32,000 nt of DNA from positions 1,530,001 through 1,562,000 of the forward strand of contig NC_006138.1 in NCBI RefSeq assembly GCF_000025945.1, written 5' to 3'. A model generated the notes under the pieces. That model searched no databases. It was not told where the DNA came from and saw nothing but the letters and a program-made list of their open reading frames with translations. The stretch comes from Desulfotalea psychrophila LSv54. GTDB taxonomy: Bacteria; Desulfobacterota; Desulfobulbia; Desulfobulbales; Desulfocapsaceae. The position numbers were made by a program, and so were the translations under genes. Below are positions 4,988 to 29,935 of this stretch, in pieces (the stretch's first letter is position 1; each line of letters opens with the position of its first letter).

Positions 4988-4995
4988 GGGCGGCG

Positions 4996-8300: not shown

Positions 8301-8310
8301 CCAGAGTTAC

Positions 8311-8373: not shown

Positions 8374-8635
8374 GGGCCCTACTCGGTAAGAGCGGCCTTT
8401 CCTCCATCGGCGATTCCATACTTGCAGCGGCCAGGACTCCACCATATCAGGGCAGGATCAGATGGAACTCTTCATCGGTAGAAATGTTGCACCTATTGTT
8501 TGAACTCAGCGTGAAATATTATACATCTTTTAAAGATAGATGTTGGGGCCTCTAAAATTGATTGGTGAAAATCACTTGGTTTTTAACGGTCTTGAAGGAG
8601 ATATATCTCTGCATGAAGGATAGGTTCCAGGCGAT

Positions 8636-8668
8636 AAGTGGGCCGGCAGAGAGGCTGGCCCACTTTTT
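8636..8668 (+). terminator. Hairpin plus T5 tract oriented for the + strand; no annotated + strand gene upstream ('orphan' terminator)
   Basis: AAGTGGGCC-ggcagagaggct-GGCCCACTT followed by TTT, with the T-run at 8664-8668. On the minus strand, downstream of the bPH gene, the same stem is followed only by TT. It may act weakly in both directions. Confidence 0.5.
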
Positions 8669-8671
8669 GTC

Positions 8672-9049
8672 CTAAGCGAGAATGTGTTGGCTTATCAGCC
8701 TGTTGAAGCCGACAATATCAAAGCTCCCTCGTATCTCAAAGGCAACTCTGCCAACTGCGCTGATATAGATCTCTATTTCACAGTCAAGATCAAGACTTCC
8801 CGATGTTTCCACGGAAAAGGTCTGGATTTTAGCGTAGGGAATTGAGGTGTAGTCTACCTTGGAGCCTGTCAGTCCCTGCACATTTGCGGCAATGATTCGT
8901 TTATTGGTGAAAACTACCTGATCCCTGATGGTCTTAAAGGTGGCAAATATCTTCTCCCCGTCGATGAGAAAGAGAGATATTGCCTCCAGGGCCTTGCTGT
9001 TATCAATGGGCTTGAGCTTAAAAAGTTCTGACTTGTCAAAATCGATCAT
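8672..9049 (-). CDS. Bacterial PH-domain protein (bPH_1 / DUF1696-like)
   Basis: 125-aa ORF. ...IRDQVVFTNKRIIAANVQGLTGSKVDYTSIPYAKIQTFSVETSGSLDLDCEIEIYI... matches my recollection of the bPH_1 family consensus (RD..vFTnkR...G.tG.K....siPY..I..fsvET.G..DlD.E). Confidence 0.7.
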   Translation of the reverse strand: MIDFDKSELFKLKPIDNSKALEAISLFLIDGEKIFATFKTIRDQVVFTNKRIIAANVQGLTGSKVDYTSIPYAKIQTFSVETSGSLDLDCEIEIYISAVGRVAFEIRGSFDIVGFNRLISQHILA

Positions 9050-9079
9050 ATTCTTTTCCTTTTGCCTGGTTTTGCATGC

Positions 9080-10039
9080 TTAGCATGCGGACTCGCACGG
9101 TTTATGTTTTTTCTGGCACCATACAAGCATAATAATCCCCGTCACTATAAGCAATAGACCAATGATGGCTGCCAGATCGGGTAGGGGGGAATCGAGGAAA
9201 ATCATGCCACCAACCAGGGCAAAGCCCACCTCCGTTGCCTGACTTGCATCAACGCCCGCCAGTTCCGTTGAATCCTTTGCTTTGCTTCTTGCAGCCAGAA
9301 AAATGGTGGTGGCAAGAACACCGGAGAAAAAGGCAACAAGGGAGCTGTTGAGGACCTGTGTAGGGCTTGGCAGCGGTGGATGCAGAATGCAGATAAGTAC
9401 GATCCATAGGGGTACAGAGCCCAGGGAGAGGAGCATGACCTTGTTAAAGGTGTTGTCCAAAAGGGGGGAGTCAATCTTGGGGAGATGGCGGTGTCCTCCT
9501 ATTTTAGCCTCCCAGACCAGCTGGTTGCCAAGCGGATAGCAGAATGTGGCAATCATTACAGGTAGGGCTCCAAGCATTATGGTATGGAGATTAACCTCTC
9601 CCATATGTGACAGGTTGACCAGGCAGGCACCGATAAAGATAAGTAAGGCGAAGAGCCAGACACGTTTAGGGAGTGAGCGACCGAATAGGATAAAGATAAA
9701 GAGACTTGCAACTACAGTGAATTGCCAGGTGGTGGCAATTATCCATCCCGGTGTAAAGTCCGCACTAAAGCAGAGAAGGGCATAGAATGCGCCAAAACCA
9801 ATGCTGCCGCTAAGGAGCCAGAAGATCCAGTTTGAGGCAAAGAGCTTGAGGACATCTTTTATCTGGCGCAGGCCTCCCTGGCTAAAGAGGATGGCAGATA
9901 AGAATATAATCATAAAGAGATAGCGCAGAGATGCTGACCAGAGCCAATGTCCGCCAGCCACACTCATTACCTCATTTAAGAGAAATGTGGAGCTGAAAAA
10001 TGCCCCCGCCAATGTTCCAAGTAAAATCGATTTCAACAT
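9080..10039 (-). CDS. 10-TM DMT-superfamily-like membrane protein ('multidrug resistance efflux transporter family' type)
   Basis: 319-aa hydrophobic ORF. The N-terminus ...FSSTFLLNEVMSVAGGHWLWSASLRYLFMI... resembles that family as I recall it. The substrate is unknown. Confidence 0.55.
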   Translation of the reverse strand: MLKSILLGTLAGAFFSSTFLLNEVMSVAGGHWLWSASLRYLFMIIFLSAILFSQGGLRQIKDVLKLFASNWIFWLLSGSIGFGAFYALLCFSADFTPGWIIATTWQFTVVASLFIFILFGRSLPKRVWLFALLIFIGACLVNLSHMGEVNLHTIMLGALPVMIATFCYPLGNQLVWEAKIGGHRHLPKIDSPLLDNTFNKVMLLSLGSVPLWIVLICILHPPLPSPTQVLNSSLVAFFSGVLATTIFLAARSKAKDSTELAGVDASQATEVGFALVGGMIFLDSPLPDLAAIIGLLLIVTGIIMLVWCQKKHKPCESAC

Positions 10040-16187: not shown

Positions 16188-16565
16188 TTATAAATTGACA
16201 ATTGCCTCAATTTCAATGCAACCATCAAGGGGAAGTTTGGCCACTTCAAAGGCACTTCGAGCAGGAAAAGGCTCGGAGAAAAATTCTGCATAAACGATGT
16301 TTGCTCGGACAAAATCTTTCAAATCTGCTAGAAAAACGGTTGTTTTAACAACTTGATCCAAGGTTCCGCCAGCCTCTTCCACTACTGCTTTGAGGTTGTT
16401 AAGGGATTGACGAGTGCAATCCTCGATGCTTCCCTCGCACATTTTTCCGGTTTCAGGATTTATTGGTAGTTGTCCTGAAATGTAGAGGGTATTGCCACTT
16501 TTGATTGCCTGGGAGTATGGTCCTACGGCATTTGGTGCTTTATCTGTTTTGATTTGGACTTTCAT
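16188..16565 (-). CDS. ridA: RidA/YjgF-family enamine/imine deaminase
   Basis: 125-aa ORF: KAPNAVGPYSQAIKSGNTLYISGQLPINPETG..., ...TTVFLADLKDF...PARSAFEVAKLPLDGCIEIEAI. It starts 10 nt after the ygeY stop. Confidence 0.9.
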   Translation of the reverse strand: MKVQIKTDKAPNAVGPYSQAIKSGNTLYISGQLPINPETGKMCEGSIEDCTRQSLNNLKAVVEEAGGTLDQVVKTTVFLADLKDFVRANIVYAEFFSEPFPARSAFEVAKLPLDGCIEIEAIVNL

Positions 16566-16575
16566 TTTGAGTACC

Positions 16576-17775
16576 TTATTTTTTTTGTAAATAGATTATT
16601 GGAATTGCGGCATACATTTGGGTTGCCTTAAGAACCTGCTCTTTTGCTACATATTCGTTGGGCACATGGCAGGCATCCAGAGTGCCAGGACCATAACCAA
16701 TAACGGGTATTTGATGTTTGCCCATGATACCAACGCCGTTAGTTGAAAATGGCCATGTAGTCAGGGTTCCTTCTTTCGCGAAGAGTTCTCGGTAGGCCAT
16801 CAGTGCAGATTTGGTTATCCTGTGTTCTTTTTCGAGTTTCCAGGCGGGGAAGATGCACTCTTTCTGGCATGGTTTTCCCGTATAAGAAGGTTCTGAAAAG
16901 GTGAAAAACTCAACTCGCGCTTCGGCCTCTTGTACTGCCGGGAGTTGTTTTACCTGATCGAGAGCGTATTTTGGTGATTCTCCCCAGGTAAGTCTGCGGT
17001 CAATTGATATTTCGCAATAATCGGCAACGGAGCAGCGGGATGGCGCATGGGCAGAAATTTCTGAAACAACAAGGGTGCCTTTACCGAGTTCTGGGTCTTC
17101 TATTTCTAGATTGTCGTTTAACTGTTCAAGTTCAGTTATGATGCGTGCCATTTTGTAGATAGCATTCTTACCCTTGTGTGGGGTAGATGCATGGGCACTG
17201 AGACCGGATACAGAGATCTTAAATTCCATCCGCCCTTTTTGAGCCAGAGAAATTTCATCATTACTTGGTTCGGCAAGGATAACAAAGTCTGGTTGCAATC
17301 CTTTTTTTTCGATTAAAAACTCCCAGGCAAGGCCTTCACATGGCTCTTCCTGGACAGTAGTACAAACCATATAGGTAAAATCCTCTAGCAGATCTAAGTC
17401 CTTGAGGATTTTCCCGGCATAGAGCATCGAGGCGATGGATGCCTTCATATCGGCGGCGCCACGGCCATAAATGTTCTTTTCATCCTGAGCGCCGGAGGTG
17501 GGGGATTGATGCCACTGCTTTTCGTCTCCATATCCCACAACATCCATATGGGCATCGACGCAGATGAGTTTGGGGCCATGTCCTACCGAACCACAAACAT
17601 TGCCCATTTCGTCGATTTCAACCTTGTCGAAATCAAGGGCCCTCATCTTTTCGGCAACAAGCTGTGCGACCCGGCCTTCATCTCCAGAAAAGCTTTCTGT
17701 CTGGATAAGGGTACTTGCGAAATCGTAGATATTCTGTGCGTAGAATTTGCTGCGATCCTTAATATTATTAAACAT
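16576..17775 (-). CDS. ygeY: YgeY-family M20 metallohydrolase ('selenium-metabolism-linked' hydrolase family)
   Basis: 399-aa ORF collinear with E. coli YgeY as I recall it: DKVEIDEMGNV, GHGPKL..VDAHMDVVG, YGRGAADMK, TVQEEPCEGLAW, SIDRRLTWGE, FSTNGVGIMGKHQIPVIGYGPG. Confidence 0.8.
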   Translation of the reverse strand: MFNNIKDRSKFYAQNIYDFASTLIQTESFSGDEGRVAQLVAEKMRALDFDKVEIDEMGNVCGSVGHGPKLICVDAHMDVVGYGDEKQWHQSPTSGAQDEKNIYGRGAADMKASIASMLYAGKILKDLDLLEDFTYMVCTTVQEEPCEGLAWEFLIEKKGLQPDFVILAEPSNDEISLAQKGRMEFKISVSGLSAHASTPHKGKNAIYKMARIITELEQLNDNLEIEDPELGKGTLVVSEISAHAPSRCSVADYCEISIDRRLTWGESPKYALDQVKQLPAVQEAEARVEFFTFSEPSYTGKPCQKECIFPAWKLEKEHRITKSALMAYRELFAKEGTLTTWPFSTNGVGIMGKHQIPVIGYGPGTLDACHVPNEYVAKEQVLKATQMYAAIPIIYLQKK

Positions 17776-17794
17776 AGTTACCTGGTTAGTGATG

Positions 17795-17824
17795 AGTGCG
17801 TGTATGAGAGTTCATACACGCACT
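17795..17824 (-). other. Perfect 13-bp intercistronic stem-loop between BCCT and ygeY
   Basis: AGTGCGTGTATGA-gagt-TCATACACGCACT, read directly. It occupies most of the 55-nt gap and has no following U-tract on the mRNA strand. Confidence 0.6.
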
Positions 17825-17830
17825 ACGATG

Positions 17831-19363
17831 CTATTTAAATTCTTCTCTGAACTGTTTGAATGTACTGATTATACATAAGAACAGAACAAACATAAGGGGC
17901 AGAGCAAAAATCAGGCTTATACTTTGTAGTAAATCAATGCCGTTTTTTACCCCTAACATAAGAGTCAATGCCATAGCAGCTTGGGCAATTGTCCAAATTA
18001 TTTTCATTCTATTGCTAGGGTTTGGGTCACCATCAGAACTCATACTACTCAGTGTATATGTTGAGCTGTTAATTGAAGTGATAAAACAGGTAAAAAGAGC
18101 CAGTACAACTCCAACGGAAATTACTTTACCGAAAGGTAAGCTTTCGAGAACGATAAAGGTTGCTGCTTTAGAAGAAGCAGCTGCAGCTTTTATCACCTCA
18201 GGCGACGATTCGAGGCCGATGGTTCCAAAGAATGCTACCCAGATGAAAATTCCAAGACATGGCAAGATCATAGAACCAAGGATGAATTCGCGAACAGTTC
18301 TACCCTTTGAAACCCGAGCGATGAATGGTCCAACAAAAGGAGCCCAGGCGATAGCCCATGCATAGTAGTAAATAGGCCATCCTGTTATCCATGAAGTCTC
18401 TTTATCAGCGGCAAATGTTGGCAGCATCAAGGCATCTGAAAAGAAGCTGTTCATGTAGTTGCCAATTGTATCGAAGTAGACGTTAAACATTTTGGTGGTA
18501 GGACCGACTAATCCCACCAATATGAGTATGCCAACGAGCAGATACACATTGTAGTCAGAGAGTACTTTGATACCTTTCTCTAGTCCTGCTGTTGTACAAA
18601 ATATTGTAATTATTGCTATTGTTGCGACTACTACAATTTTCACCAGATCGGAATCTGGTGTGCCGAAAAGGTATTTAAAACTAACACTTAACGAGAGACC
18701 TGTTTGGCCGAGTGATGTTGAAATCCCTGCGATTGCACCGAAGATACAGATAAGGTTGATAGCTTTACCTAAGGGGCCATTTGCCTTATCACGTCCCCAG
18801 GGAATCAAGATGTTACTGATGAGATTGGTTTCACCCTTACGGTACATCATATAGCCGAGGATCAGTCCTACTACAGAAAAAGCAGCCCAGGCTTGTATGC
18901 CTTGGTGGATAAAGCTTTGCTTCATTGCAAATTCAGCAGCTTCTGGTGAAAGTGGTGCGAGCCCTGTTGTCGCTAAGGGGTGTATATAGTGATATACTGG
19001 CTCAGCAACACCCCAATAGAGCATTACTGTTCCCATTCCCGCTGAAAAAAGCATACCCATCCAGGAAAATGTCGAAAAATCAGGGGTGGCATCATCTGGC
19101 CCAAGCTTAATATTTCCGTATTTGCTAAATGCGAAGAAAAACATCACCATCACATAAATAAATGAGCCTGCCATATATACCCAACCAAATCTATCAGTTA
19201 GGTATTTCATTGTTGTTATTCCTGCTTTGTAAAGCAAATCGGGGAAGAGCGCTCCACAAAGAACAACAAGAACAATGAAAGACATTGTGCTAGCGAAAAG
19301 CAATTTGCCCTGCTTGAGTTCGGGGCCTGCATGAGCTTTTTGTTGTATATCTTTAGACATCAA
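17831..19363 (-). CDS. BCCT-family transporter (betaine/carnitine/choline type), copy 1
   Basis: 510-aa polytopic ORF with BCCT hallmarks (FSWMGMLFSAGMGTVMLYWGVAEPVYHY; WPIYYYAWAIAWAPFVGPFIARVSKGRTVREF). The track start is a TTG at 19363. An ATG lies one codon later (19360), with a GAGAGG SD upstream. Confidence 0.9.
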   Translation of the reverse strand: MMSKDIQQKAHAGPELKQGKLLFASTMSFIVLVVLCGALFPDLLYKAGITTMKYLTDRFGWVYMAGSFIYVMVMFFFAFSKYGNIKLGPDDATPDFSTFSWMGMLFSAGMGTVMLYWGVAEPVYHYIHPLATTGLAPLSPEAAEFAMKQSFIHQGIQAWAAFSVVGLILGYMMYRKGETNLISNILIPWGRDKANGPLGKAINLICIFGAIAGISTSLGQTGLSLSVSFKYLFGTPDSDLVKIVVVATIAIITIFCTTAGLEKGIKVLSDYNVYLLVGILILVGLVGPTTKMFNVYFDTIGNYMNSFFSDALMLPTFAADKETSWITGWPIYYYAWAIAWAPFVGPFIARVSKGRTVREFILGSMILPCLGIFIWVAFFGTIGLESSPEVIKAAAASSKAATFIVLESLPFGKVISVGVVLALFTCFITSINSSTYTLSSMSSDGDPNPSNRMKIIWTIAQAAMALTLMLGVKNGIDLLQSISLIFALPLMFVLFLCIISTFKQFREEFK

Positions 19364-19374
19364 TCAATTCCTCT

Positions 19375-20541
19375 CTATGTGATAATGGTAATCTGCTCGC
19401 TGGCACGACGGGTAAGCCATTCTGCTCCATCTTCGGTGATAACAATGTCTTCTTCGTGGACCATATCTTTACCTTTGGCATAGGTCATTCCCGGCTCCAG
19501 GGTAATAACCATTCCGGGTACGAGTGGGGTGTTGTCAGTGGCGGTGTTAGAGGGCCACTCTGTTAGCTGCGAACCAAGTCCATGTCCGAGGCGTCCAACT
19601 TCGTTGCCAAGAGCACCACCTGCCTCCATTACTGCCCACATTGCATTGTAGATATCTGTGGTTGTGGCTCCTGGGTGTGCTGCTGCAAATCCTGCGCTGG
19701 TTGCCTCGTAAACGCATTCGTAGGCTTTTTTGGTTTCAACGCTGCATTCACCAAAGGCGAAGTTGCGATCAAAATCAGAAAAATAACCGTCATAAACGCA
19801 ACCAACATCGATGATAAGCACATCTCCTCTCTCAATATTGCGGGAGGTAGGTCCCATAATGATGCTGTCATAGCCGTCTGGACCGGAACCAGAGATGAGG
19901 TATTTGACAAATTCGGCCCCATCTTCCAACATATCGATACGCATTTGCCGGCAGATATCTCTTTCTGTTTGACCAACACGGGCATGTAGGGGAATACGAT
20001 CAAAGGCATTGTTGGTAATTACGCACGCCTTTCGAATTTTGGCGATTTCGGCAGGAGATTTAACTGAACGCAATCGATGCATTTCAAGGGCAATGTCAAC
20101 GAACTCTTTTCCCTGTAGGCGGGTAGAGAGATTGAGATAGTCGGTGGTTGGCATACGTAAATATGATTGAAGACCGAGTGTTGCACCAACTCTACCGTAT
20201 TTGGTAGGAAGGGCGTTGAGAACTCCAGCGACCAGGGAGATACCGTCGTCTTCCGGGGCAGGGGATGACCAGGTTCTAATGTCATCAATCCATGTAGCCG
20301 CCATACCGCTTGCCCCAATACCCGGGATAACAGCAATAGGCTTGCCCTCTGTGGGAATTATGAGAAACCATGGGCGGGTAGGGCTTTCCCAAAATTGTGT
20401 GTAGTAACCTGTATAATATCGAATGTTTGGTTCGGTGGTGAGGAAAACTGCATCGAGTTTTTTCTCGCGCATAACTGCCTGCATCTTAGCTGTTCGTGCT
20501 TCAAATTCTGCATCGTCAAAACCGAATTCTCTTATGGTCAT
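19375..20541 (-). CDS. M24-family metallohydrolase (creatinase/prolidase fold, metal ligands intact)
   Basis: The N-terminal part is consistent with a Creatinase_N-type domain, followed by the pita-bread domain. Candidate metal ligands are present: IIDVGCVYDGYFSDFDRNF, GHGLG, ITLEPG, VHEEDIV. I place the start at ATG 20541 (MTIREF...) with SD AGAGAGG 7 nt upstream, rather than at the track start 20589, which overlaps dpaL. Confidence 0.8.
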   Translation of the reverse strand: MTIREFGFDDAEFEARTAKMQAVMREKKLDAVFLTTEPNIRYYTGYYTQFWESPTRPWFLIIPTEGKPIAVIPGIGASGMAATWIDDIRTWSSPAPEDDGISLVAGVLNALPTKYGRVGATLGLQSYLRMPTTDYLNLSTRLQGKEFVDIALEMHRLRSVKSPAEIAKIRKACVITNNAFDRIPLHARVGQTERDICRQMRIDMLEDGAEFVKYLISGSGPDGYDSIIMGPTSRNIERGDVLIIDVGCVYDGYFSDFDRNFAFGECSVETKKAYECVYEATSAGFAAAHPGATTTDIYNAMWAVMEAGGALGNEVGRLGHGLGSQLTEWPSNTATDNTPLVPGMVITLEPGMTYAKGKDMVHEEDIVITEDGAEWLTRRASEQITIIT

Positions 20542-20564
20542 AGTAAAGCCTCTCTTTGCTGTTG

Positions 20565-21776
20565 TTATAGGTTGTCGCGTCCGTGCCATAAAACATCCCT
20601 GTACAATTCAGGGGAGGTATCACCTTCGGTGCTGATGCAGAGCACCTGTGCATTCAGGTCGAGGCCAAGCTTTTCCCGGGCCTCTTTTCCCTCTTCGCTG
20701 GTCATTACCCAGTGAAGAAAGCCTGTTGTTGCGGCTCCTGATTCTCCGGAGGTCACCTGTGGATCTCCTTTTATTGGAGCTCCCAAAACTCTCATTCCCG
20801 TTGCGGCAATATCGTCGGAGCAAGACGCATAGGCGACGGGATAATCTCGAAGCATTTCCCAGCTGGTTTTGTTGGGTTCACCGCAGGCGAGTCCGGCCAT
20901 AAGGGTGAGGAGGTCACCTTCAACAGTGTGAGGTTTTCCGTCGTTTGCGCAGGCAGAAACATAAAAACAGTTCGCGGCATCGGGCTCTACGATGATGAAT
21001 TTAGGGCAATCTTTGCCGAAGGCAGACATGAAAAAACCGATCATCGCTCCTGCAAAACAGCCAACTCCAGCCTGGAGTAAAACATGGGTGGGACGTTCAA
21101 TACCCTGTGCCTGCATCTGTTCTAATGCCTCAAGGGCAAGGGTTGTGTATCCCTGCATAATTGTATTCGGAATGTCCTCGTATCCATCCCAAGCTGTATC
21201 TTGTACTGTGATCCATCCCTCCTGTTGTGCTTTGTCCCAGGCCATGCGAACACAGTCGTCGTAATTGAGTTCTGTTATGGTGCAGTCGGAGCCAAGGGCT
21301 TGGATATTGTCGCGACGGATGGGAGCAGAACCCTTTGGCATGTAGATAATGGCTTTTTTATTAAACTCTTTAGCCGCCCATGCCAGGCCTCGTCCATGAT
21401 TCCCATCTGTTGTAGATGCGAAGGTGATATCGCCAATTTTGTCCGAGGTCTCTTTAGAACTCAGGTCAGAACAGCTTACTTCGGAGATATCTTTGCCAAG
21501 CATTTCAGCGAGTATTTTTCCTACGGCGTAGGAACCGCCAAGTACCTTGAAGGCGTTGAGACCAAAGCGATAGGATTCATCTTTTATCAGGATTGATCCA
21601 AGCCCAAGGTGTTCAGCAAGTTGGTCAAGTTTAGCCAAGGGTGTTGGCTGGTAGGATGGAAAGGTTTGGTGGAAGTCTCTAACTTTCTCAGCTACTTCTT
21701 TACTGAGAAGGGAGACCTCTGTCCCTTTTAATGGAGCTATTGGATTTTCATTAAATTTAATTCTAACACTAGACAA
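20565..21776 (-). CDS. dpaL: Diaminopropionate ammonia-lyase (YgeX/DpaL type, PLP-dependent)
   Basis: 403-aa ORF collinear with E. coli YgeX as I recall it: YQPTPL, IKDESYRFGLNAFKVLGGSYA, TTDGNHGRGLAWAA, IYMPKGSA, LLQAGVG, MAGLACGEPN, ISTEGDT. It uses a TTG start, with GAGGGAG 7 nt upstream. Confidence 0.85.
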   Translation of the reverse strand: MSSVRIKFNENPIAPLKGTEVSLLSKEVAEKVRDFHQTFPSYQPTPLAKLDQLAEHLGLGSILIKDESYRFGLNAFKVLGGSYAVGKILAEMLGKDISEVSCSDLSSKETSDKIGDITFASTTDGNHGRGLAWAAKEFNKKAIIYMPKGSAPIRRDNIQALGSDCTITELNYDDCVRMAWDKAQQEGWITVQDTAWDGYEDIPNTIMQGYTTLALEALEQMQAQGIERPTHVLLQAGVGCFAGAMIGFFMSAFGKDCPKFIIVEPDAANCFYVSACANDGKPHTVEGDLLTLMAGLACGEPNKTSWEMLRDYPVAYASCSDDIAATGMRVLGAPIKGDPQVTSGESGAATTGFLHWVMTSEEGKEAREKLGLDLNAQVLCISTEGDTSPELYRDVLWHGRDNL

Positions 21777-21817
21777 AATTATATCTCCCTCTTTGAATTA
21801 TTGGTTGTCTTTGTATT

Positions 21818-21834
21818 AGCATAATGCGTGCCAA
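21818..21834 (-). promoter_or_regulatory. Sigma-54 (-24/-12) promoter for the dpaL operon
   Basis: The minus strand reads TTGGCACGCATTATGCT, against the consensus TGGCACG-N4-TTGCW. GG and GC are both present at the correct spacing, with one mismatch (ATGC for TTGC). It lies about 40 nt upstream of the dpaL start and immediately downstream of a sigma-54 activator gene. Confidence 0.65.
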
Positions 21835-21918
21835 AATCGACAATACTGACAATAGTTCGAAAAAACAGGATCTTAGCCTTTTGCCTGAGGGGGAGGTATG
21901 TTTTTATTCACTTCTCGT

Positions 21919-21947
21919 AATGAGAAAAATTCTAGAAATGAGAAAAA
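21919..21947. repeat. Two copies of the direct repeat AATGAGAAAAA (18-bp phase) between the EBP stop and the sigma-54 promoter; candidate UAS or bend
   Basis: Read directly: copies at 21919-21929 and 21937-21947, about 85-130 bp upstream of the -24 element. A second pair, GACAATA at 21839-21845 and 21848-21854, abuts the -24 element. The function is inferred only. Confidence 0.3.
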
Positions 21948-21949
21948 GA

Positions 21950-23698
21950 TTAATAGGTACTTGTTTTGCGGTATAGCGTTGCGAGGCTGATGCCAAGACT
22001 TTTAGCGGCCTGTCTTTTTCCTTCGGTGGAGTCACCGTACAGGGCAATAGCTCTTGTAATTGCTTGGAACTCTAACTCTTTGAGAGGTATTACCGGGGGG
22101 TGGTTATTTGGGCTGAGGGGTATGGTGGTGCCTAGGTTTTCGGGGTTTACTAAAAAGCCTGAATAGATGGAGGTTTCATCTATTTTTCCCTTCTTGTCTG
22201 CAATGTTAACAAGGTATTCTATGGCATTTTCAAGCTCTCTGATGTTGCCGGGCCAGAGGTATTTTTCCATACGTTGCCTAATGTTTTTAGAGAGAAAAAT
22301 CTGGTCTTTGTTAAATAAATCACAGTATTTATTTGTAAAATGTTTGATGAGTAAGGTGAGATCTTCCATTCGATTTCGAAGTGGAGGTGTTTCAATGGGA
22401 ATAACATTGAGGCGATAATAAAGGTCGTTTCTGAACTTATTTTGCAGCATCATCTCGTGGAGATTATCATTACATGCGGCGATTATACGAATGTCCACCG
22501 AGATAGGGTTTGCAGCCCCGAGTCGGGTGATGGTTCTTTCCTGCAGAACCCTGAGCAATTTTACTTGCAAATAAAGGGGCATAGAAGATATCTCATCGAG
22601 GAAAATTACGCCACCTGCCGCAAGCTCAAACTTGCCAATTTGACCTTGTTTGGATGCCCCTGTGAAGGCTCCACCAACATAACCAAAGAGCTCACTTTCA
22701 AGTAAGGTATCAGGGATGGCTCCGCAGTTAATGGCAACAAAAGGCTCCTTGTTTCTATTGCCAGAAAAATGAATAGCTCGGGCAACCAGCTCTTTTCCTG
22801 TGCCACTTTCGCCAGAGATAAGAACCGATGAGTTGGTGTCTGAGGTTGCCTGTATTTGGCTTTTTAATGTTCTAATAAGAGGAGAGTTTCCGATAATATG
22901 CTGTAGTGATGCATCTTCCGGGGAACTTGGTCCTGAGGATAAAGATATAACAGATTGGATGGTATCAAAGATAAAAACAGAGGAGAATCTGCTTGTCTTG
23001 GAATCGAGCTTAACCCTTTTTCCTGCCAGTAGCTGTTGCCTATCTCCTTGTCTTATGATGAATTCGTCAAGGTCGGAGAATGTCACGCCTGTGGCTGTCA
23101 GGGAGAAATTCTCAAAATTAGAATTAAGGGTTTTGTGCAAAATTTCTTGGGCTCTGGCGTTTTTGAAAACAACTTTTCCGTTTGTGTCACAAATCATGGT
23201 GCCACGGTTGTTTATCTCTATGACCTCTGACATTGCATCAAAAAGATCGTTAAGATTTTTTTGAGCATGTTTTTCAAGTACATGGGCTGCGATACTGCTA
23301 GTGAGTAATTGGAGGAAATTTACATAAACATCTCTTTGCGGAATAAGTTTTTTTCGAATCTCTTCAGAGAAGCAGATGAGTTCCATTGCCCCATAGGTGT
23401 TTTTTCCGTCGGAAATGGGGGCACAGATAGAGAGGAGCTCATGGCATTGTTCTTTGGTTTGGCAACCCTTGCATATGCTATTTTTCCTGGGGTTTTCAAT
23501 AAAAAGAGGTTTGGTACTTTTCAGTGTGGCTTTGAGAAGATTACCTGCTTTTTTTATGCTTTTCCCAATGTTTTTTGAGTAATCCCCAGTGCCTGCAATT
23601 CTGATGAGGTTGGTATCAACAACTTCAACTTCAAAACCAGTTACCTTGGATATTGTATCAGCGTAATATTGAATTTGTTTTTGCAGACTGAGTAACAC
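21950..23698 (-). CDS. Sigma-54-dependent transcriptional activator (YgeV-like: N-terminal sensory domain with Cys cluster, PAS-like region, AAA+ domain, Fis-type HTH)
   Basis: AAA+ motifs GESGTGKELVARAIH and GAFTGA, ESELFGY, and a C-terminal HTH (AAKSLGISLATLYRK). The N-terminus (FEVEVVDTNLIRIAGTGDY ... CKGCQTKEQC) resembles E. coli YgeV as I recall it. I prefer the GTG start at 23698 (AGGAG 5 nt upstream). The maximal ORF begins at a TTG at 23752, which has no SD. Confidence 0.88.
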   Translation of the reverse strand: MLLSLQKQIQYYADTISKVTGFEVEVVDTNLIRIAGTGDYSKNIGKSIKKAGNLLKATLKSTKPLFIENPRKNSICKGCQTKEQCHELLSICAPISDGKNTYGAMELICFSEEIRKKLIPQRDVYVNFLQLLTSSIAAHVLEKHAQKNLNDLFDAMSEVIEINNRGTMICDTNGKVVFKNARAQEILHKTLNSNFENFSLTATGVTFSDLDEFIIRQGDRQQLLAGKRVKLDSKTSRFSSVFIFDTIQSVISLSSGPSSPEDASLQHIIGNSPLIRTLKSQIQATSDTNSSVLISGESGTGKELVARAIHFSGNRNKEPFVAINCGAIPDTLLESELFGYVGGAFTGASKQGQIGKFELAAGGVIFLDEISSMPLYLQVKLLRVLQERTITRLGAANPISVDIRIIAACNDNLHEMMLQNKFRNDLYYRLNVIPIETPPLRNRMEDLTLLIKHFTNKYCDLFNKDQIFLSKNIRQRMEKYLWPGNIRELENAIEYLVNIADKKGKIDETSIYSGFLVNPENLGTTIPLSPNNHPPVIPLKELEFQAITRAIALYGDSTEGKRQAAKSLGISLATLYRKTSTY

Positions 23699-24078
23699 GA
23701 TTGCTCCTAATGATGGGGGTGCTTGGTTTACTATTTGCTTCCATAGGGGCAAGAGGATTGGGTGTATGAAAATTTACCAAATAGTTCGGCGAGGTTGTTA
23801 TGAACAAGATAAACAGATTGGCTACATATTTTTATAAATAAAATTAAGGCCAGAGAAGTCTCCCCATATGGACATAGTAATATAACCGATTGTACGTGCT
23901 TTTTGCTATCTTTTACTGTCGGAGCGGATTTGTTAGCTTGGAAATGTCCACAACACGGTATTGTCATCTGCTTTTGGGCATAGTGTTTTTATTGATGAAA
24001 TATCGTGAGCTAAAAAATGTTGGTAGGAGATAATGAAAAATAGAGGTGTTGTCTTTTTGTTGCCAGGAGTGTGCAGCA

Positions 24079-24120: not shown

Positions 24121-24558
24121 CTATTTTTTAATCTTTACTATGGTACCCTCCAGAGCAACACCGGCCATCAGGGCTCCGGCTCCACATTGAAATGAGCTAT
24201 TGCTTGAGTGGAGCTTGCTCTTGTAGTTGGATTTAATATTTATAACGGCATTGCCGCCTTGGCTGACAGCACTTTCTTCAAGAGCAATCATAGCCGAGAG
24301 AAATACCCACTGACATGCCTCCTTATCTGATTTATTAAAGGAGTTGGTTTTTTTGTTGGTGTTCACTGTACCGTAATTTTTTATTACCTTGCCGTGTTTA
24401 CTCTTGCCAAAGTAAAAACTTACATCGCCACTGAGTTTTGTTTGTGCCGCCTTCTGAGCGAGGGCCTCTTTTACGGAGTAGTTGCCCAGGCTGTCTCTTG
24501 CCACTGCCGAAGAGATCATTAACATGCTCAGTAGAATTGCCAGTACGATTGTCTTCAT
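24121..24558 (-). CDS. Small secreted conserved hypothetical protein
   Basis: 145-aa ORF with a signal peptide (MKTIVLAILLSMLMISSAVA). The mature part (...FYFGKSKHGKV...NKKTNSFNKSDKEACQWVFLSAMIALEESAVSQGGNAVINIKSNYK...QCGAGALMAGVALEGTIVKI) resembles a gammaproteobacterial family that I recall being mis-annotated as 'excinuclease ATPase subunit'. The function is unknown. Confidence 0.6.
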   Translation of the reverse strand: MKTIVLAILLSMLMISSAVARDSLGNYSVKEALAQKAAQTKLSGDVSFYFGKSKHGKVIKNYGTVNTNKKTNSFNKSDKEACQWVFLSAMIALEESAVSQGGNAVINIKSNYKSKLHSSNSSFQCGAGALMAGVALEGTIVKIKK

Positions 24559-24961
24559 TTTTTCTCCCTATGAAATGTTCTAATATGGTTCCAGAATTGC
24601 GGAGCAATCTGTCACTGATTGTAGTCATCCTTTGTAGCAATCTTATATTGTCTTTGCTACTAATCTTTTTAAGAGAGGCATTCTTAAAAATAGGGCAGGT
24701 TTTCCTTGGAAGTCAAGCATGATAAGTCTATACAGATGAGTTGCCTGTTGCCAGCCTGAGGAGAATACGGGGCAGGCCGTTAACGGCTCTCTTCTGGAGA
24801 GAGTTTTTGGAAAATGGAGAGGTTTTTACTGACAGGGAGGAGGGGGCAGGATCTTTGCCCATTATTTGCTATGATAAATCGATGTATGCCCTGGAAAACC
24901 GACCTCTTGGTGAGGCCGGTTCTCCAGTACTTATTGGTCTACATCCGCTAATGAGATGTAG

Positions 24962-25912
24962 TTATCTTTTTGCCCTCTTGTTTGCTGCGACACAGGAGAG
25001 GAATGCATGCATGATGCCGGCGGCGGCAAAAGAGGTGATCTCTGCATTGTCTGACTCTGGAAGTACCTCCACCAGATCCATCCCCACCAGTTCCTGGCCT
25101 TGGCAGCAGTTAAGGACAAGCTTGAGAGCCTCATGGGTGGTGAAACCGCCAATCTCGGGAGTTCCTGTGCCCGGTGCATAGGCGGCATCAAGAAAATCAA
25201 TATCAAACGACATGAAAACAGGGGTACCCGGGCTGATACGCTCTTTGATGCGCTTGATTGCCTCGTTTATACCTATTTCATGAAGCTCCCAGCCGGTGAT
25301 AACCTGCATACCGCTTTCGCGGACAAACTTGAGCGAATCTCTGCCGTAGAGGGGGCCTCGGATTCCCGTCTGGGTGGACTCCTCAGGCTTGATCAAACCC
25401 TCCTTGATGGCCCAATGGAAGGTGGTGCCGTGGTTGTAGGGCTTACCGAAGTAATCACTTCCCGTATCCGAGTGAGCATCAAAGTGAATAAGGGCCACGG
25501 GGCCATGCTTCTTAACGATGGAACGCAGTTGCGGCAGGGTGATGGAGTGGTCTCCACCCATAACAACAGGAATGATGTCATTTTTTAAGAGGGCACTCAT
25601 TCCCTCTTCAATGCGCTCAAATGACTCATCCAGGTGGCCGGGAATAATATCAATATCGCCGTAATCAACACCGCTACACTCTTCAAATATATCCACGTCA
25701 AGCACCTCTTCATAGGACTTGAGTATGGTAGAGGCAGCCCGAATACCAGCAGGCCCGAAGCGACATCCTGGCTTATAAGTGGTGGCAGTATCAAAAGGAA
25801 TGCCAAGGACGGCAAAGTCTATATCCTGTAGATCCGTTTGATAGGGAAGACGCATAAAGGTTCTTATGCCACAAAAGCGGGGCGAGGCAAGGGCATTTAC
25901 TGGCTTAGACAT
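24962..25912 (-). CDS. Agmatinase/guanidino-acid hydrolase-type ureohydrolase (arginase superfamily)
   Basis: Mn-ligand motifs are all present: VMGGDHSITLP, IHFDAHSDTG, MSFDIDFLDAAYAPGTGTPE. I place the start at the internal ATG 25912 (MSKPVNAL..., AAGGAAA SD) rather than at the track start 25996, which overlaps the BCCT gene. Confidence 0.85.
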   Translation of the reverse strand: MSKPVNALASPRFCGIRTFMRLPYQTDLQDIDFAVLGIPFDTATTYKPGCRFGPAGIRAASTILKSYEEVLDVDIFEECSGVDYGDIDIIPGHLDESFERIEEGMSALLKNDIIPVVMGGDHSITLPQLRSIVKKHGPVALIHFDAHSDTGSDYFGKPYNHGTTFHWAIKEGLIKPEESTQTGIRGPLYGRDSLKFVRESGMQVITGWELHEIGINEAIKRIKERISPGTPVFMSFDIDFLDAAYAPGTGTPEIGGFTTHEALKLVLNCCQGQELVGMDLVEVLPESDNAEITSFAAAGIMHAFLSCVAANKRAKR

Positions 25913-25940
25913 GGTCTGTTTTCCTTGTAATGATTTGTTT

Positions 25941-27557
25941 TTAAAGTGCTTCTTTTTGTAGTTGGCTCTTGAGGATTTCGCTCTTAAGCATTTCAATCTG
26001 TTCTATTTCGCTCTGGCGTTTTTCCATTTCGCTATGTTGCATTTCGCTCTTGAGGTCTTTTAGCAAAGACCAGAGCATAAAGATCATTCCGATACCAAAG
26101 GGGGCGCCGGCTATGATACATGCACTCTTTAATGCGCCGAGTCCGCCGCTTACTAAGAGGACAACTGCGAGGGTGCCGAGGAATGCGCCCCAAACCACCT
26201 TCATAAGGGTTTTGGGTTCGTAGGCACCCTTAGACATGAGCATGGCCACAAAGAATGAAGCTGAATCCGCCGAGGTAACGAGGAAGAGGATCATGTTTAT
26301 AAAGACAATAATGCTGAGCAATTTGGCGAAGGGAAGGGTGCTGAGTAGCATATATATGCCGGAGCCTACATCTGCTGAAATGCTTGTCCACATGGGTGCT
26401 GTCTGGTTCATCTCTGCCAGAATGGAAGAGCCGCCAACAATGGTAAACCAGACAAGGCTAAAGGCGGTGGGAGCTAAAACGGCACCTACGATAAAGCCTC
26501 GGATGGTACGTCCACGGGAGATACGGGCAATAAATCCGCCGACAAAGGGAGCCCAGGCAATGGTTAGGAGCCAGCAGAAGAGGGTCCAGCTGGAAAACCA
26601 CTTGCTGTGTTGTTGTAAGGGATCGGTATAAAAGGTCATGGGAATAAATTCACTGACATAGCTGCCTACGTTATTTACCAGCAGACGCAGCAGGGTATTT
26701 GTCTCTCCAAAAATAAGAATAAAGAGACACCATGAGATTGCCAGAATAATATTAACATTACTCAAAAAGGCCATGCCTCGGTGCAGTCCTGTTATGGCTG
26801 AAATAACATAGAGACCAATGATAATAGCCATAATGAGCAGCTTGCCCCCAACGCCAACTTCTATGCCGAAGATAAGTCCAGCCCCGTAGCTTAGGGAGAT
26901 AATACCAAGTCCAAGGGCAGTACTGAGTCCTCCTACCGTAGCAATGGCACCAATGGTATCGAGGAGACGTCCCCACACGCTGGTACTTGCCTTGTCACCA
27001 AGCAGTCCGTGTAGGGCAACAGAGAGGGTCATGGGGCGATTCTGCCTAAAGGCAGGAAAGGCAATGCAGAGGCCCACTATGGAGTAGCCCATCCAACAGT
27101 GAATACCCCAGTGGAATGATGCTATGCGAATGGCGACAGGAAGAGCCTCGGGGCTGCCGGCAACAGCGCCGTAGGGGGTGTTCATAAAGTGGAACATGGG
27201 TTCAGCAGCACCCCATAAAACATAGCCAACGCCAATGCCGCAACTAAAGAGCATGGCGATCCAGGTGGTGGTGCTGAACTCCGGTTCATCACCGGCCTGT
27301 CCCAGGGTAAGGTTGCCATATTTACTGATGGCAACGCCAAAGCCCACGATGATACAGAGGGCCATAATTGAGACGTAAAGCCAGCCAAAGGTATCTGCAA
27401 TATAGGCCCGTCCTGCCATGGCGTATTTACCTAAGATTTCAGGGTAGATGGCACCAAATACTACGATAGCAAGAGTTACCAGGGCGGTGGTATAGAAGAG
27501 AAATGGGTCGTATTGGCCCAGTAATCTTGTCATTAAATTGTTTTTTTGCTTCGACAT
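25941..27557 (-). CDS. BCCT-family transporter, copy 2, with a repetitive charged C-terminal tail
   Basis: 538-aa ORF with BCCT hallmarks (WIAMLFSCGIGVGYVLWGAAEPMFHF; WTLFCWLLTIAWAPFVGGFIARISRGRTIRGF). There is a GAGGA SD 4 nt upstream of the ATG. The tail reads KSEMQHSEMEKRQSEIEQIEMLKSEILKSQLQKEAL. Confidence 0.9.
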   Translation of the reverse strand: MSKQKNNLMTRLLGQYDPFLFYTTALVTLAIVVFGAIYPEILGKYAMAGRAYIADTFGWLYVSIMALCIIVGFGVAISKYGNLTLGQAGDEPEFSTTTWIAMLFSCGIGVGYVLWGAAEPMFHFMNTPYGAVAGSPEALPVAIRIASFHWGIHCWMGYSIVGLCIAFPAFRQNRPMTLSVALHGLLGDKASTSVWGRLLDTIGAIATVGGLSTALGLGIISLSYGAGLIFGIEVGVGGKLLIMAIIIGLYVISAITGLHRGMAFLSNVNIILAISWCLFILIFGETNTLLRLLVNNVGSYVSEFIPMTFYTDPLQQHSKWFSSWTLFCWLLTIAWAPFVGGFIARISRGRTIRGFIVGAVLAPTAFSLVWFTIVGGSSILAEMNQTAPMWTSISADVGSGIYMLLSTLPFAKLLSIIVFINMILFLVTSADSASFFVAMLMSKGAYEPKTLMKVVWGAFLGTLAVVLLVSGGLGALKSACIIAGAPFGIGMIFMLWSLLKDLKSEMQHSEMEKRQSEIEQIEMLKSEILKSQLQKEAL

Positions 27558-27841
27558 AATATCCTCAAAAGTCAGTTAGATGGGGGCAAAAATGTTTCTG
27601 CTGTTAACGGTCAAACTATACTACTGCCACCTCCTTCCGCTTTGCGGGGGCCAAACAATGATACCATCTAATGTTTTGTTAGAAGCTTTAACTGGTGTAT
27701 CAGATTTGGTAAAGAAAAAATTAATAGTCAATATTCGAGACAAATAATCGTGTAAAGACGAGTATTTACATTACTTTTTGTTGTGGCACAGCTACTCTGT
27801 TTTATTGGCCCCATCCTGGGACAGGGCCAAGGCTCTACTCT

Positions 27842-28528
27842 CTAATGGAAGTATATGGCAAATATATGTTCTTTATTGTACTCGAAATCCCAATGTCTCT
27901 CTTTTACATAGTATCGTAAATCTGTTTCATTCTTTTCCCGCAGGGCCCGAATGATCAGGTCATGTTCGTCACAGCCATCAAGGAACCAACGTTGCACAAA
28001 GTTGCGACGTGGCAGATCCCACAATCGATTTTGCACGGGGACAAGTATTCGTTCCGCAAACAGATTCGGTGCTACGGTCAGAAAATAGTCATGGGACTTT
28101 CTATGCAGGATATCGTATTGTTGAATATCTTCGGCGTAGATGCTTTTGCGCATCTCTTTCACCACCTCTTCCATCTCATCGAGGATGGATGCTGTATAAT
28201 GAGGCATGCCACGTATACAGAGGGTGTTTTCCAGTGAGCCAATAACTTCGTAGAGGTATTGAAAATCTTCTTTTTCAAGTTTATTTACAATGACCTTACT
28301 ACGGGGGTAAATCGTTACAATACCTTCAGCCTCCAAGCGAATAAGGGCATCACGCAGAGGTGTACGGCTAATTTGTAGATGTTCGCTTAACTCGGTAAGG
28401 TTGAGACTGTTACCGGGTAAAATTTCCCCCTCTTGCATACGTTTTCTTAAATAGTTGTATACTAGGTCACGGGCAACCCGAGAAATTTTCTTCTGGACTG
28501 TTTTCTTTTTATTCACCATACCTCTCAA
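27842..28528 (-). CDS. GntR-family transcriptional regulator (FadR/FCD-like C-terminal domain)
   Basis: Winged-helix region: ...GEILPGNSLNLTELSEHLQISRTPLRDALIRLEAEGIVTIYPRSKVIV... It is followed by an all-helical domain of about 150 aa. The start is uncertain: either TTG 28528 or ATG 28519. Confidence 0.85.
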   Translation of the reverse strand: MRGMVNKKKTVQKKISRVARDLVYNYLRKRMQEGEILPGNSLNLTELSEHLQISRTPLRDALIRLEAEGIVTIYPRSKVIVNKLEKEDFQYLYEVIGSLENTLCIRGMPHYTASILDEMEEVVKEMRKSIYAEDIQQYDILHRKSHDYFLTVAPNLFAERILVPVQNRLWDLPRRNFVQRWFLDGCDEHDLIIRALREKNETDLRYYVKERHWDFEYNKEHIFAIYFH

Positions 28529-28538
28529 ATATGTTTGT

Positions 28539-28548
28539 TGATATATCA
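28539..28548. repeat. 10-bp perfect palindrome TGATATATCA just upstream of the gntR start (candidate auto-operator)
   Basis: Read directly. It is short and AT-rich, so a chance occurrence is quite possible. Confidence 0.25.
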
Positions 28549-28882
28549 GATGCTATTCGTTTTCTATTCCTCTTTTCCCATTCTGTCAAGAAAAAATAAA
28601 AGATGCCTCTCCGCAGGCTTCTTGTCGATTGTCACCTGTTCTTGGCGAGGCTATAGCAGGCCATTTCTTGCTCTGCTTAGATACTTCACCTGTTATAATA
28701 TGTACTTGGTATTTTTTTCTATAGCTGCCACTGCGTGGAAACTGAAAGAGGAGCAGGATTAAAGGAGGCAGATGGGGTAGAGGGAGAAATTGTCTAAGCC
28801 GATTCAGGAGAGATAAATATCATTAAACGCCCCTCGGTCTTTGCTTAGGAAATCGATTTCGGGGGTAAGCCATGGGGCTGAT

Positions 28883-29935
28883 CTATTTTGCAAAGCACGA
28901 TATTTGTTCAAGCCTATGGGATATTTTGACAGAGGCACCGACTCTGAGCTCTTCTCTGGCAAAGGTTAAGGTCTGACATATTTCTCCGCTGCCAAGTTTT
29001 AGTTGGTATAGGGAGCTCCCTCCACGAAAGGATTTGTGCGTCACCCGGGCCTCTATCTCGCCATCTTCCCCACAGTGAATCTCTTCCGGTCGGATGAGCA
29101 CTCTCACCTCATCGCCCCTCTTATGGGGACCGGAAATATTCGTCTTGAGGAGCCCCAGGGCGCACTCTATCTCTCCCGCTTCCATAACTCTCCCGCAGAT
29201 AAGTGCTCCGTCACCTATAAAGGTTGCAACCTCTGCTGTTGCTGGCTGGTGGTAAATATTATGGCAACTGTCCCATTGTTGCATCTTCCCATGGAATAAA
29301 AGGCCAATTTTATCGGCGACAGAGAAGGCCTCATACTGGTTATGGGTCACCAGCAGCCCTGTTGTCCCTGATTTCTTTAAAATATCTCTTACCTCTATAG
29401 TCAGCCGATCTCTTAACAGAGCATCGAGATTGGAAAATGGCTCATCGAGTAAAAGCAATTCAGGTTCAGGGGCAAGGGCGCGGGCAAGGGCGACGCGCTG
29501 CTGTTGTCCTCCCGAGAGCTCGTGCGGGTATTTGCCTAGGGCATCCTCTAAGCCAACCAGCTTCAGTAGAGAGCGGACCTTCTCTTTTTGCCTGGGGCGG
29601 GGCTTTTCCCGTATACCGAAGGCAATATTTTGCTCTACAGAGAGGTGAGGGAAGAGGGCGTAGTCCTGGAAAACCATGCCCACGGATCGTTTTTCAGGGG
29701 ATCTGCTCATCCCTGCAGCTGAAACCACCTCTCCATTTATCTCTATCCTGCCCGACTGGATTTCTTCAAAGCCTGCAATGGTACGAAGCAGGGTTGTTTT
29801 GCCACAGCCGCTGGGGCCCAGTAAACAGCCGATCTCTCCGCGGGCAAGTGAGAGAGAGACATTTTCGATGATATTCTGTTCATCGTAGGACTTGGACACA
29901 TTTTTTATCTGTAAAATAGTATCTTGGCTATTCAT
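28883..29935 (-). CDS. ABC transporter ATP-binding protein (Fe3+/polyamine-importer type, FbpC-like)
   Basis: Walker A (GPSGCGKTT), signature (LSGGQQQRVALARAL), Walker B (LLLLDEPFSNLD), and a C-terminal TOBE-like domain. I place the start at ATG 29935 (MNSQDTILQIKNV...), which overlaps the permease stop by 1 nt (TAATG). The track's longer ORF overlaps the permease. Confidence 0.9.
   Translation of the reverse strand: MNSQDTILQIKNVSKSYDEQNIIENVSLSLARGEIGCLLGPSGCGKTTLLRTIAGFEEIQSGRIEINGEVVSAAGMSRSPEKRSVGMVFQDYALFPHLSVEQNIAFGIREKPRPRQKEKVRSLLKLVGLEDALGKYPHELSGGQQQRVALARALAPEPELLLLDEPFSNLDALLRDRLTIEVRDILKKSGTTGLLVTHNQYEAFSVADKIGLLFHGKMQQWDSCHNIYHQPATAEVATFIGDGALICGRVMEAGEIECALGLLKTNISGPHKRGDEVRVLIRPEEIHCGEDGEIEARVTHKSFRGGSSLYQLKLGSGEICQTLTFAREELRVGASVKISHRLEQISCFAK

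Follow-up and report, generated by a model that had tools for sequence, protein, structure and literature searches.

In Pseudomonas aeruginosa, the gpuPAR genes provide an importer, a guanidinopropionase and a regulator, and Nakada and Itoh (2002, 2005) reportedly described the operon organisation of gpuPAR for 3-guanidinopropionate and of gbuA/gbuR for 4-guanidinobutyrate. Here we analyse a comparable arrangement in Desulfotalea psychrophila LSv54, a sulfate reducer adapted to cold, contained in a window of 32,000 nucleotides (the whole stretch of DNA that was analysed; contig NC_006138.1, positions 1,530,001 to 1,562,000). It consists of a GntR/FCD regulator gene (gntR, 27842-28528, minus strand, 228 amino acids), a gene for a BCCT carrier (25941-27557, minus strand, 538 amino acids) and a gene for an arginase-fold ureohydrolase (24962-25912, minus strand, 316 amino acids). 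We propose that the carrier imports a guanidino substrate, that the enzyme is a guanidino-acid amidinohydrolase and that GntR is the probable repressor of the module. From sequence comparison, it is probable that the three genes make up a self-contained catabolic operon for the GntR-controlled uptake and hydrolysis of a small guanidino acid.

As in gpuPAR, the genes for importer, arginase-fold hydrolase and dedicated regulator lie side by side in the window. However, the transporter belongs to the BCCT family rather than to the SSS family, and regulation would be by a GntR/FCD repressor where gpuPAR has a LysR activator. The enzyme shares a basic acid-capping residue with both GpuA and GbuA and an aromatic specificity-loop residue with GpuA, whereas it differs from both in belonging to a clade of its own found mostly in anaerobes. 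A second described relative is the human guanidino acid hydrolase GDAH (formerly AGMAT), which is 60% identical to GbuA and acts on taurocyamine, guanidinobutyrate and guanidinopropionate; its substrates must bear an acidic group, which is contacted by the residue equivalent to GbuA Arg72 (PMC9772407). GDAH and the window enzyme have in common the arginase fold and the label of agmatinase, under which GDAH was long mis-annotated (PMC9772407). In contrast to the window enzyme, which is only about 41% identical to GbuA, GDAH is the closer GbuA relative, and it is a stand-alone mitochondrial enzyme without an operon-coupled transporter.

Layout of the module

The sequence-only reading of this DNA had described a GntR gene, a gap of 284 bp, a BCCT gene and, 28 nt further on, an arginase-superfamily gene, and its coordinates and gaps were all reproduced. 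The gntR-BCCT intergenic gap spans 27558-27841 (284 nt) and the BCCT-ureohydrolase spacer 25913-25940 (28 nt, minus strand), in which a ribosome-binding site AAGGAAA can be read directly from the sequence. A terminator scan found no terminator-like site on the minus strand within the spacer. The ureohydrolase open reading frame extends mechanically to 25996, but the public 316-residue protein begins at the ATG at 25912. Every gene of the window from 16.2 to 32 kb is on the minus strand.

Family and substrate-related residues of the ureohydrolase

The ureohydrolase matched the Pfam Arginase family (PF00491) with an E value of 1.3e-88 over residues 32-304 (profile positions 2-277 of 280). All the Mn-ligand motifs noticed at first reading were located, namely GGDHS at residues 119-123, DAHSD at 145-149 and SFDIDFLD at 235-242, and they align with the motifs of GbuA and GpuA. 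The best solved relatives are GbuA (3nio, 4e-70) and GpuA (3nip, 5e-68), followed by the proclavaminate amidinohydrolase PAH (1gq6). The corresponding bit scores of 239.7, 232.8 and 228 exceed those of agmatinases, which reach at most 202, by a modest margin; solved agmatinases matched at 1e-58 or weaker. The enzyme shares about 41% of its residues with each of GbuA and GpuA and therefore falls in a separate clade.

Two positions bear on the nature of the substrate. In the alignment, Lys65 of the window enzyme is the counterpart of GbuA Arg72. Among 119 aligned rows, this position is Lys in 112 of 117 homologues and Arg in five, and both GbuA and GpuA have Arg. In GbuA, Arg72 reaches over from the adjacent subunit to cap the carboxylate of the substrate, and it matches the Arg105/Gly105 polymorphism of the human guanidino acid hydrolase (PMC9772407). 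The second position lies in the specificity loop, where a residue is implicated in chain-length recognition (GbuA Met161, GpuA Tyr157; PMC10833137); the equivalent of GpuA Tyr157 is Tyr154 in the window enzyme and Tyr or Phe in all 117 homologues. Lys65 and Tyr154 together would fit a guanidino acid rather than agmatine, without fixing its chain length.

An ordinary biosynthetic agmatinase (SpeB) that makes putrescine beside an incidental BCCT neighbour would agree with the public label, with the score against the agmatinase equivalog TIGR01230 (229.4 bits, cutoff 174.3), with a near-cutoff score against the agmatinase model PRK02190 (301 bits, cutoff 302) and with matches to E. coli SpeB structures at 1.8e-55. 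Yet every agmatinase is outscored by GbuA, GpuA and PAH, and the basic residue at the acid-capping position is kept. The gene also follows an importer gene by 28 nt under a putative repressor, its relatives lie inside TRAP, SSS or ABC uptake modules, in one case beside a creatinase, and polyamine-biosynthetic genes (speA, speE and similar) were not found in the window. The human "agmatinase" itself turned out to be a guanidino-acid hydrolase (PMC9772407). We consider a plain agmatinase very unlikely. The comparisons instead support an enzyme of the guanidino-acid hydrolase type that is not SpeB-like in its context, in line with the guanidino-hydrolase function suggested at first reading; the enzyme is closest to guanidinobutyrase and guanidinopropionase and keeps their basic acid-capping residue.

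Relatives of the ureohydrolase lie in uptake modules

Relatives of the ureohydrolase that are 55-81% identical to it come mainly from Desulfobacterota and in part from Firmicutes, so that the clade is mostly one of anaerobes. Wherever their flanks were readable, these genes lie in uptake modules with an importer and a regulator. Importer families other than BCCT are found in this setting in seven of the comparison loci (L057, L042, L008, L004, L054, L001 and L055). The order GntR-DctP-DctQ-DctM-ureohydrolase occurs in Desulforhopalus singaporensis (L057) and in a metagenome-assembled genome (MAG; L042), and a Desulfovibrionales MAG (L008) has GntR, DctQ and DctM with the ureohydrolase. Halodesulfovibrio and Desulfonispora show the order ureohydrolase-SSS-sigma54 activator, and in Bilophila wadsworthia a sigma54 activator, the ureohydrolase and a TauA/SsuA-like binding protein are encoded together. 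In Pseudodesulfovibrio (L055, 8001-13338), the gene for a true creatinase (PDB 7yto, 1.5e-135) comes 23 nt after that of a 66%-identical ureohydrolase, and genes for a polar amino-acid ABC system and for a LysR regulator lie beside the pair; the cluster resembles one of creatine/guanidinoacetate type in a sulfate reducer. As a separate observation, L012, L015 and L046 (Desulfovibrio desulfuricans and relatives) carry two ureohydrolase copies a few kb apart with ABC transporter genes between them, and a candidate DUF1989/urea-carboxylase-associated protein was picked out by eye from the sequence between the copies.

The GntR-BCCT-ureohydrolase order itself recurs on two independent metagenome contigs (L051 and L052), and the arrangement is therefore not due to chance. 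Identity to the window is 84% for the BCCT carrier, 91% for the ureohydrolase and 72% for the GntR C-terminus, and the BCCT-ureohydrolase gap in L051 is 18 nt. The co-occurrence of the three families, for which the sequence-only reading had proposed a survey across genomes, thus holds on these contigs, but it does not extend to the 43 species-representative ureohydrolase loci, none of which has a BCCT neighbour; the BCCT pairing therefore appears particular to the Desulfotalea lineage. Uptake followed by de-guanidination under a GntR regulator, as that reading suggested, nevertheless fits the comparative evidence, in which relatives stand beside an importer and a regulator and one of them beside a creatinase.

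The same evidence bears on whether the substrate might be something other than an omega-guanidino acid, namely another amidino compound (for example creatine, an amino acid or peptide with a guanidino modification, or a natural product resembling proclavaminate), handled for detoxification or nitrogen scavenging. The creatinase adjoining one relative could be taken in this sense, as could the score of PAH, an enzyme of a complex guanidino beta-lactam precursor, which comes close to those of GbuA and GpuA, and the identity of only about 41% between the clade and any characterised enzyme. The conserved Lys65 and the aromatic residue at position 154 match guanidino-acid hydrolases instead, biosynthetic genes were not found nearby, and the importers of the relatives (TRAP, SSS, polar amino-acid ABC and BCCT) suit small zwitterions. 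A substrate of this other kind appears rather unlikely.

A BCCT carrier with an altered binding pocket

The module carrier matched Pfam BCCT (PF02028) at 9.2e-163 and scored 410.9 bits against TIGR00842 (cutoff 407.55), and it shares fold and family with BetP, BccT1, EctP and LcoP. Aromatic residues of transmembrane segments 4 and 8 (TM4 and TM8) line the trimethylammonium pocket of BetP (bioRxiv 10.1101/2020.05.29.123752). Pocket residues of the module carrier were read from an alignment to BetP, with the numbering checked against chain 2wit. The TM4 aromatic motif HWGIHCWMGY (27084-27113, minus strand), with the Trp-Trp-Tyr equivalents of BetP W189, W194 and Y197, is retained. In TM8, however, the motif WTLFCWLLTIAWAPFVG (26538-26588, minus strand; BetP counterpart WTIFYWAWWISWSPFVG) has Leu in place of W373 and Thr in place of W374 and retains only W377, so that the BetP aromatic box (W189, W194, Y197, W373, W374 and W377) is incomplete. 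The module carrier further differs from BetP in its genetic coupling, which is to a hydrolase and a substrate-type regulator and not to osmoregulation.

The loss of W373/W374 is common to a subclade with the motif W-L-[LIV]-[VTI]-I-[SA]-W, which accounts for about 40 of the best 120 homologues. Its members are all at least 51% identical and come from Halodesulfovibrio, Aliamphritea, Marinobacterium, Marinobacter, Ruegeria and Photobacterium. The ureohydrolase-coupled carriers were compared with 38 other members of the subclade and differ from them at only five otherwise conserved positions. Among these is Thr332 at the BetP W374 position, where the other members have Val. Outside the Desulfotalea lineage, 10 of the 11 readable subclade neighbourhoods contain an Amidohydro_3 partner, and the remaining one (L059) has no recognised known partner. 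The partners come with a GntR, LysR or AraC regulator and sometimes with a COG0523 metallochaperone. Leaving L059 aside, subclade members of at least 52% identity with readable neighbours are thus set beside a hydrolase gene and a dedicated regulator rather than in osmostress contexts. No conserved catabolic neighbours recur around the subclade, where SHMT, GcvH and serine dehydratase were met once each, too rarely for interpretation. A metagenome scan with the single BCCT protein found nothing, whereas an alignment-based scan gave matches.

These neighbourhoods and the pocket bear on whether the carrier could be a conventional osmoprotectant importer (glycine betaine, choline or ectoine) that merely shares a transcript with an unrelated hydrolase. 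The intact TM4 aromatic residues would allow it, and the best NCBIfam match is a glycine-betaine BCCT model (1.1e-143), although the score of 479 bits is well under the equivalog cutoff of 650. All solved relatives, of which the trimethylamine transporter 8zw8 is the best match, carry quaternary ammonium compounds, trimethylamine or dimethylsulfoniopropionate. Against these stand the replacement of W373 and W374, the readable subclade neighbourhoods, which, L059 apart, hold a hydrolase gene and a dedicated regulator and are not osmostress contexts, and the candidate GntR operator (described below), which is common to TRAP-importer modules with the same enzyme clade. We regard osmoprotectant import as unlikely.

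The sequence-only reading had placed a guanidinium-bearing solute outside the classical substrates of BCCT carriers. The pocket is non-classical as far as W373/W374 are concerned, but the statement was too strong, for BCCT carriers are known to move ectoine, which is itself a cyclic amidinium carboxylate (bioRxiv 10.1101/2020.05.29.123752), and a guanidino acid would therefore be only a modest chemical step away. A literature search found no report of guanidino-acid transport by a BCCT carrier. The module carrier most likely transports a small zwitterion whose head group is planar and of the N-acyl or N-amidino kind.

The Amidohydro_3-coupled sister modules offer a further comparison. The naaR-naaS-naaT genes of Ruegeria pomeroyi (SPO0657-0659) form an N-acetyltaurine cluster (PMC4334477), to our knowledge the nearest analogue of these modules that has been described. 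Like this cluster, the sister modules L056, L050 and L062 have a LysR regulator, a metal amidohydrolase and a COG0523 metallochaperone beside an importer, a likeness that lies in gene arrangement. The importers of the described naa clusters differ from those of the sister modules, being of the ABC and not of the BCCT type, and where clusters and sister modules encode an amidohydrolase, the window encodes a ureohydrolase. There are also naa clusters with what we take to be an SSS importer. By analogy, we propose that the substrates of the sister modules may be N-substituted small zwitterions. Naming the Amidohydro_3 partner an N-acetyltaurine amidohydrolase was rejected, as its homologues are generically named, a plasmid search was uninformative and NCBIfam has no specific model. 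The Amidohydro_3-coupled loci are L048, L049, L050, L053, L056 and L060-L063, with the BCCT gene at about 8001-9600 in most. Their partners are of two types, about 25% identical to each other: type A, of about 545 amino acids, comes with a GntR or LysR regulator, and type B, of about 580 amino acids, is accompanied by a CobW/COG0523 chaperone and by either a LysR or an AraC regulator. Type B is the one whose setting resembles naaR-naaS-naaT.

A shared candidate GntR operator

The regulator belongs to the FadR subfamily, with an N-terminal winged helix-turn-helix domain (Pfam GntR, 1.2e-13) and a C-terminal FCD domain (1.4e-10). It is 48-50% identical to the regulators heading GntR-TRAP-ureohydrolase modules (L057, L042, L008, L014, L016 and L018) and 43-49% identical to those heading GntR-Amidohydro_3-BCCT modules of Halodesulfovibrio and related MAGs (L048, L063 and L053). 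Both module types share one regulator family, and the window module looks like a recombinant of the two.

Palindromic sequences upstream of gntR and of the BCCT gene would tie the regulator to the module. A candidate operator, CTGATATATCAA (28538-28549, minus strand), lies 10 nt upstream of the gntR start with one mismatch to the palindrome CTGATNNATCAG, a position that implies autoregulation. The other, CTGATACACCAG (27692-27703, minus strand), lies about 135 nt upstream of the BCCT start and contains the core CTGATNNATCAG with at most one mismatch. In an alignment of the leaders, the perfect 16-bp palindrome AACTGATGCATCAGTT of L051 and L052 pairs with ATCTGATACACCAGTT at 27690-27705 of the window, and this palindrome is present twice in the intergenic region of L051. 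Allowing at most one mismatch, the window has two sites of CTGATNNATCAG in its promoter regions, L051 and L048 have two each, and L052, L042 and L008 have the motif there as well; its frequency in homologous-module promoter regions is far above the background of 0.045 sites per kb over 0.98 Mb. This is good comparative evidence that CTGATNNATCAG is a shared operator through which GntR would autoregulate its own gene and control the BCCT-ureohydrolase transcript. The control by a GntR repressor assumed in the sequence-only reading gains a conserved candidate operator that links regulator and operon.

Other modes of control were also considered. A search of Rfam for a riboswitch in the 284-nt leader gave no hit, either at gathering thresholds across the entire window or at E <= 1 within 24400-28950. 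Relatives of the ureohydrolase are often found beside sigma-54 activators, but control of the module by sigma-54 was rejected, as there is no -24/-12 element upstream of the BCCT or the ureohydrolase gene; the sigma-54 activator encoded elsewhere in the window shares only the AAA+ core with the activators of other loci. A candidate gntR promoter, TTGACA-17-TAGAAA, was read by eye at 28589-28561.

The neighbouring diaminopropionate genes

A second set of genes, for diaminopropionate (DAP), occupies 16188-23752 on the minus strand and encodes a sigma-54 activator, a YgeX-type diaminopropionate ammonia-lyase (dpaL), an M24 enzyme, a second BCCT carrier, a YgeY-type M20 hydrolase and RidA. The element TGGCACGCATTATGCT (21818-21833) upstream of dpaL is the only good -24/-12 promoter of the window. 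Judging from its composition, the set may import and hydrolyse a peptide or derivative that contains DAP. Its BCCT carrier (17831-19363, minus strand) has Gln at the position of BetP W189, Phe at Y197 and Ala at W374 and is probably no trimethylammonium carrier.

The sequence-only reading had raised the possibility that the module hydrolyses 2-amino-3-guanidinopropionate to DAP and urea and so feeds the dpaL operon as part of one pathway. What speaks for such a link is proximity, with about 3.2 kb between ureohydrolase and dpaL on the same strand and a BCCT gene in each unit. However, homologues of dpaL and ygeY were not found in any of the 53 loci carrying ureohydrolase relatives, and the adjacency is absent from the closest relative (L051 and L052), where the module is followed by unrelated genes (ABC ATPase, ABM, FAA hydrolase). 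The DAP genes form a standard YgeX/YgeY/RidA set, for which a sigma-54 activator and a separate promoter are present, and the two BCCT carriers share only 29% identity. A link through the M24 enzyme was rejected as well, because the window protein is prolidase/PepE-like and only 23% identical to the M24 enzyme of L055, which is a true creatinase.

The two units are also physically separated. Two stable hairpins (24891-24961, minus strand) lie directly after the ureohydrolase stop codon and probably mark the 3' end of the operon, with an RNA folding energy of -39.5 kcal/mol compared with -16.7 +/- 2.9 for shuffled sequences (z = -7.9). The second hairpin is a 16-bp stem that absorbs a short U tract and is no textbook intrinsic terminator; because the U tract is short, the pair was not listed by a simple terminator scan. 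The next gene (24121-24558, minus strand) has its own promoter-like site and encodes a protein of 145 amino acids, which begins with a signal-like sequence at the N-terminus, matched neither Pfam nor NCBIfam models and has homologues in none of the fetched loci. With the double hairpin and this separately promoted gene intervening, the claim of a joint pathway could not be upheld, and we judge it extremely improbable.

Genes for urease and urea carboxylase were not found in the window, as had been stated at first reading; the CT_A_B/CT_C_D genes (221-1839) adjoin a LamB/YcsF gene and fit the 5-oxoprolinase PxpABC pattern instead. These PxpA/B/C-type 5-oxoprolinase genes (LamB/YcsF, CT_C_D, CT_A_B) cover 221-2557 on the minus strand. 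Farther along, two tandem adenine-deaminase paralogues (3203-6726, plus strand) are followed by a 515-residue open reading frame without a family match (6753-8300).

Proposed pathway and candidate substrates

In the proposed operation of the module, GntR/FCD would bind the CTGAT-NN-ATCAG palindromes before its own gene and before the BCCT gene until released by the substrate or product. The BCCT carrier would then import a zwitterionic guanidino acid through a pocket that keeps the TM4 aromatic residues and has Leu/Thr in place of the TM8 tryptophans that cage trimethylammonium. Finally, the co-transcribed binuclear-metal ureohydrolase would cleave the guanidino group to give urea and an omega-amino acid, a reaction type that follows from family membership, with the substrate itself inferred. 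The candidate substrates can be placed in an order of preference, with taurocyamine or 3-guanidinopropionate first, then guanidinoacetate and then 4-guanidinobutyrate. The expected products would be taurine from taurocyamine, beta-alanine from 3-guanidinopropionate, glycine from guanidinoacetate and gamma-aminobutyrate from 4-guanidinobutyrate. In marine sediments, such guanidino compounds are present as phosphagens of invertebrates and as phosphagen precursors.

The pointers to taurocyamine or 3-guanidinopropionate are the GpuA-like aromatic loop residue, the TauA-like binding protein in Bilophila and the fact that three classical anaerobic taurine degraders (Bilophila, Desulfonispora thiosulfatigenes and Desulforhopalus singaporensis) have members of the clade; the possible analogy of the sister modules with N-acetyltaurine points the same way. 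Guanidinoacetate is suggested by the creatinase adjoining the ureohydrolase in Pseudodesulfovibrio, and 4-guanidinobutyrate by similarity to GbuA only. A literature search found nothing on Bilophila with taurocyamine or agmatinase, nor on taurine use by Desulfotalea.

Several observations weigh against a guanidino-acid operon, in addition to the TIGR01230 score above cutoff and the public label of agmatinase. The substrate hints, which are indirect, are split between the candidates and fix no single compound, and the window offers no visible route for the urea or amine product. On the right strand, no convincing match to a sigma-70 promoter was found for the BCCT gene. Among solved structures, the TRAP binding protein is closest to 4uab, which presumably binds ethanolamine, a non-acid, and TRAP coupling is therefore weaker evidence than usual for an acidic or anionic substrate. 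In the searchable literature, neither a paper on this enzyme clade or BCCT subclade nor biochemical or expression data for any member were found.

A bolder idea, to which we give a small chance, is that the W373/W374-less subclade is an unrecognised class of importers for N-substituted zwitterions of the taurine or beta-alanine type. It would take up N-acetyltaurine where coupled to Amidohydro_3 and taurocyamine (N-amidinotaurine) where coupled to the ureohydrolase, so that sulfidogenic anaerobes with this ureohydrolase clade would harvest taurocyamine derived from invertebrate phosphagens. If true, taurocyamine would be converted to taurine and on to sulfite for respiration in Desulfotalea, Bilophila, Desulforhopalus singaporensis and Desulfonispora, whichever importer is used, and sulfur cycling in sediment and gut would have a new organosulfonate input.

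Significance of the module

No principle is overturned by these findings, and the logic of importer, ureohydrolase and regulator is already known from Pseudomonas. What is new is its combination of a BCCT importer, a putative GntR repressor and a distinct enzyme clade. If the carrier does import a guanidino acid, the substrate range of a well-studied family would widen, tied to a signature in the loss of two TM8 tryptophans. The candidate GntR operator shared between modules also defines a regulon that is open to experiment. Sulfate- and sulfite-reducing anaerobes widely carry the enzyme clade, the gut pathobiont Bilophila wadsworthia among them, and every named record examined calls the protein agmatinase. 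Relabelling it would alter metabolic reconstructions of the turnover of guanidino compounds, such as creatine precursors and phosphagens, in sediments and the gut.

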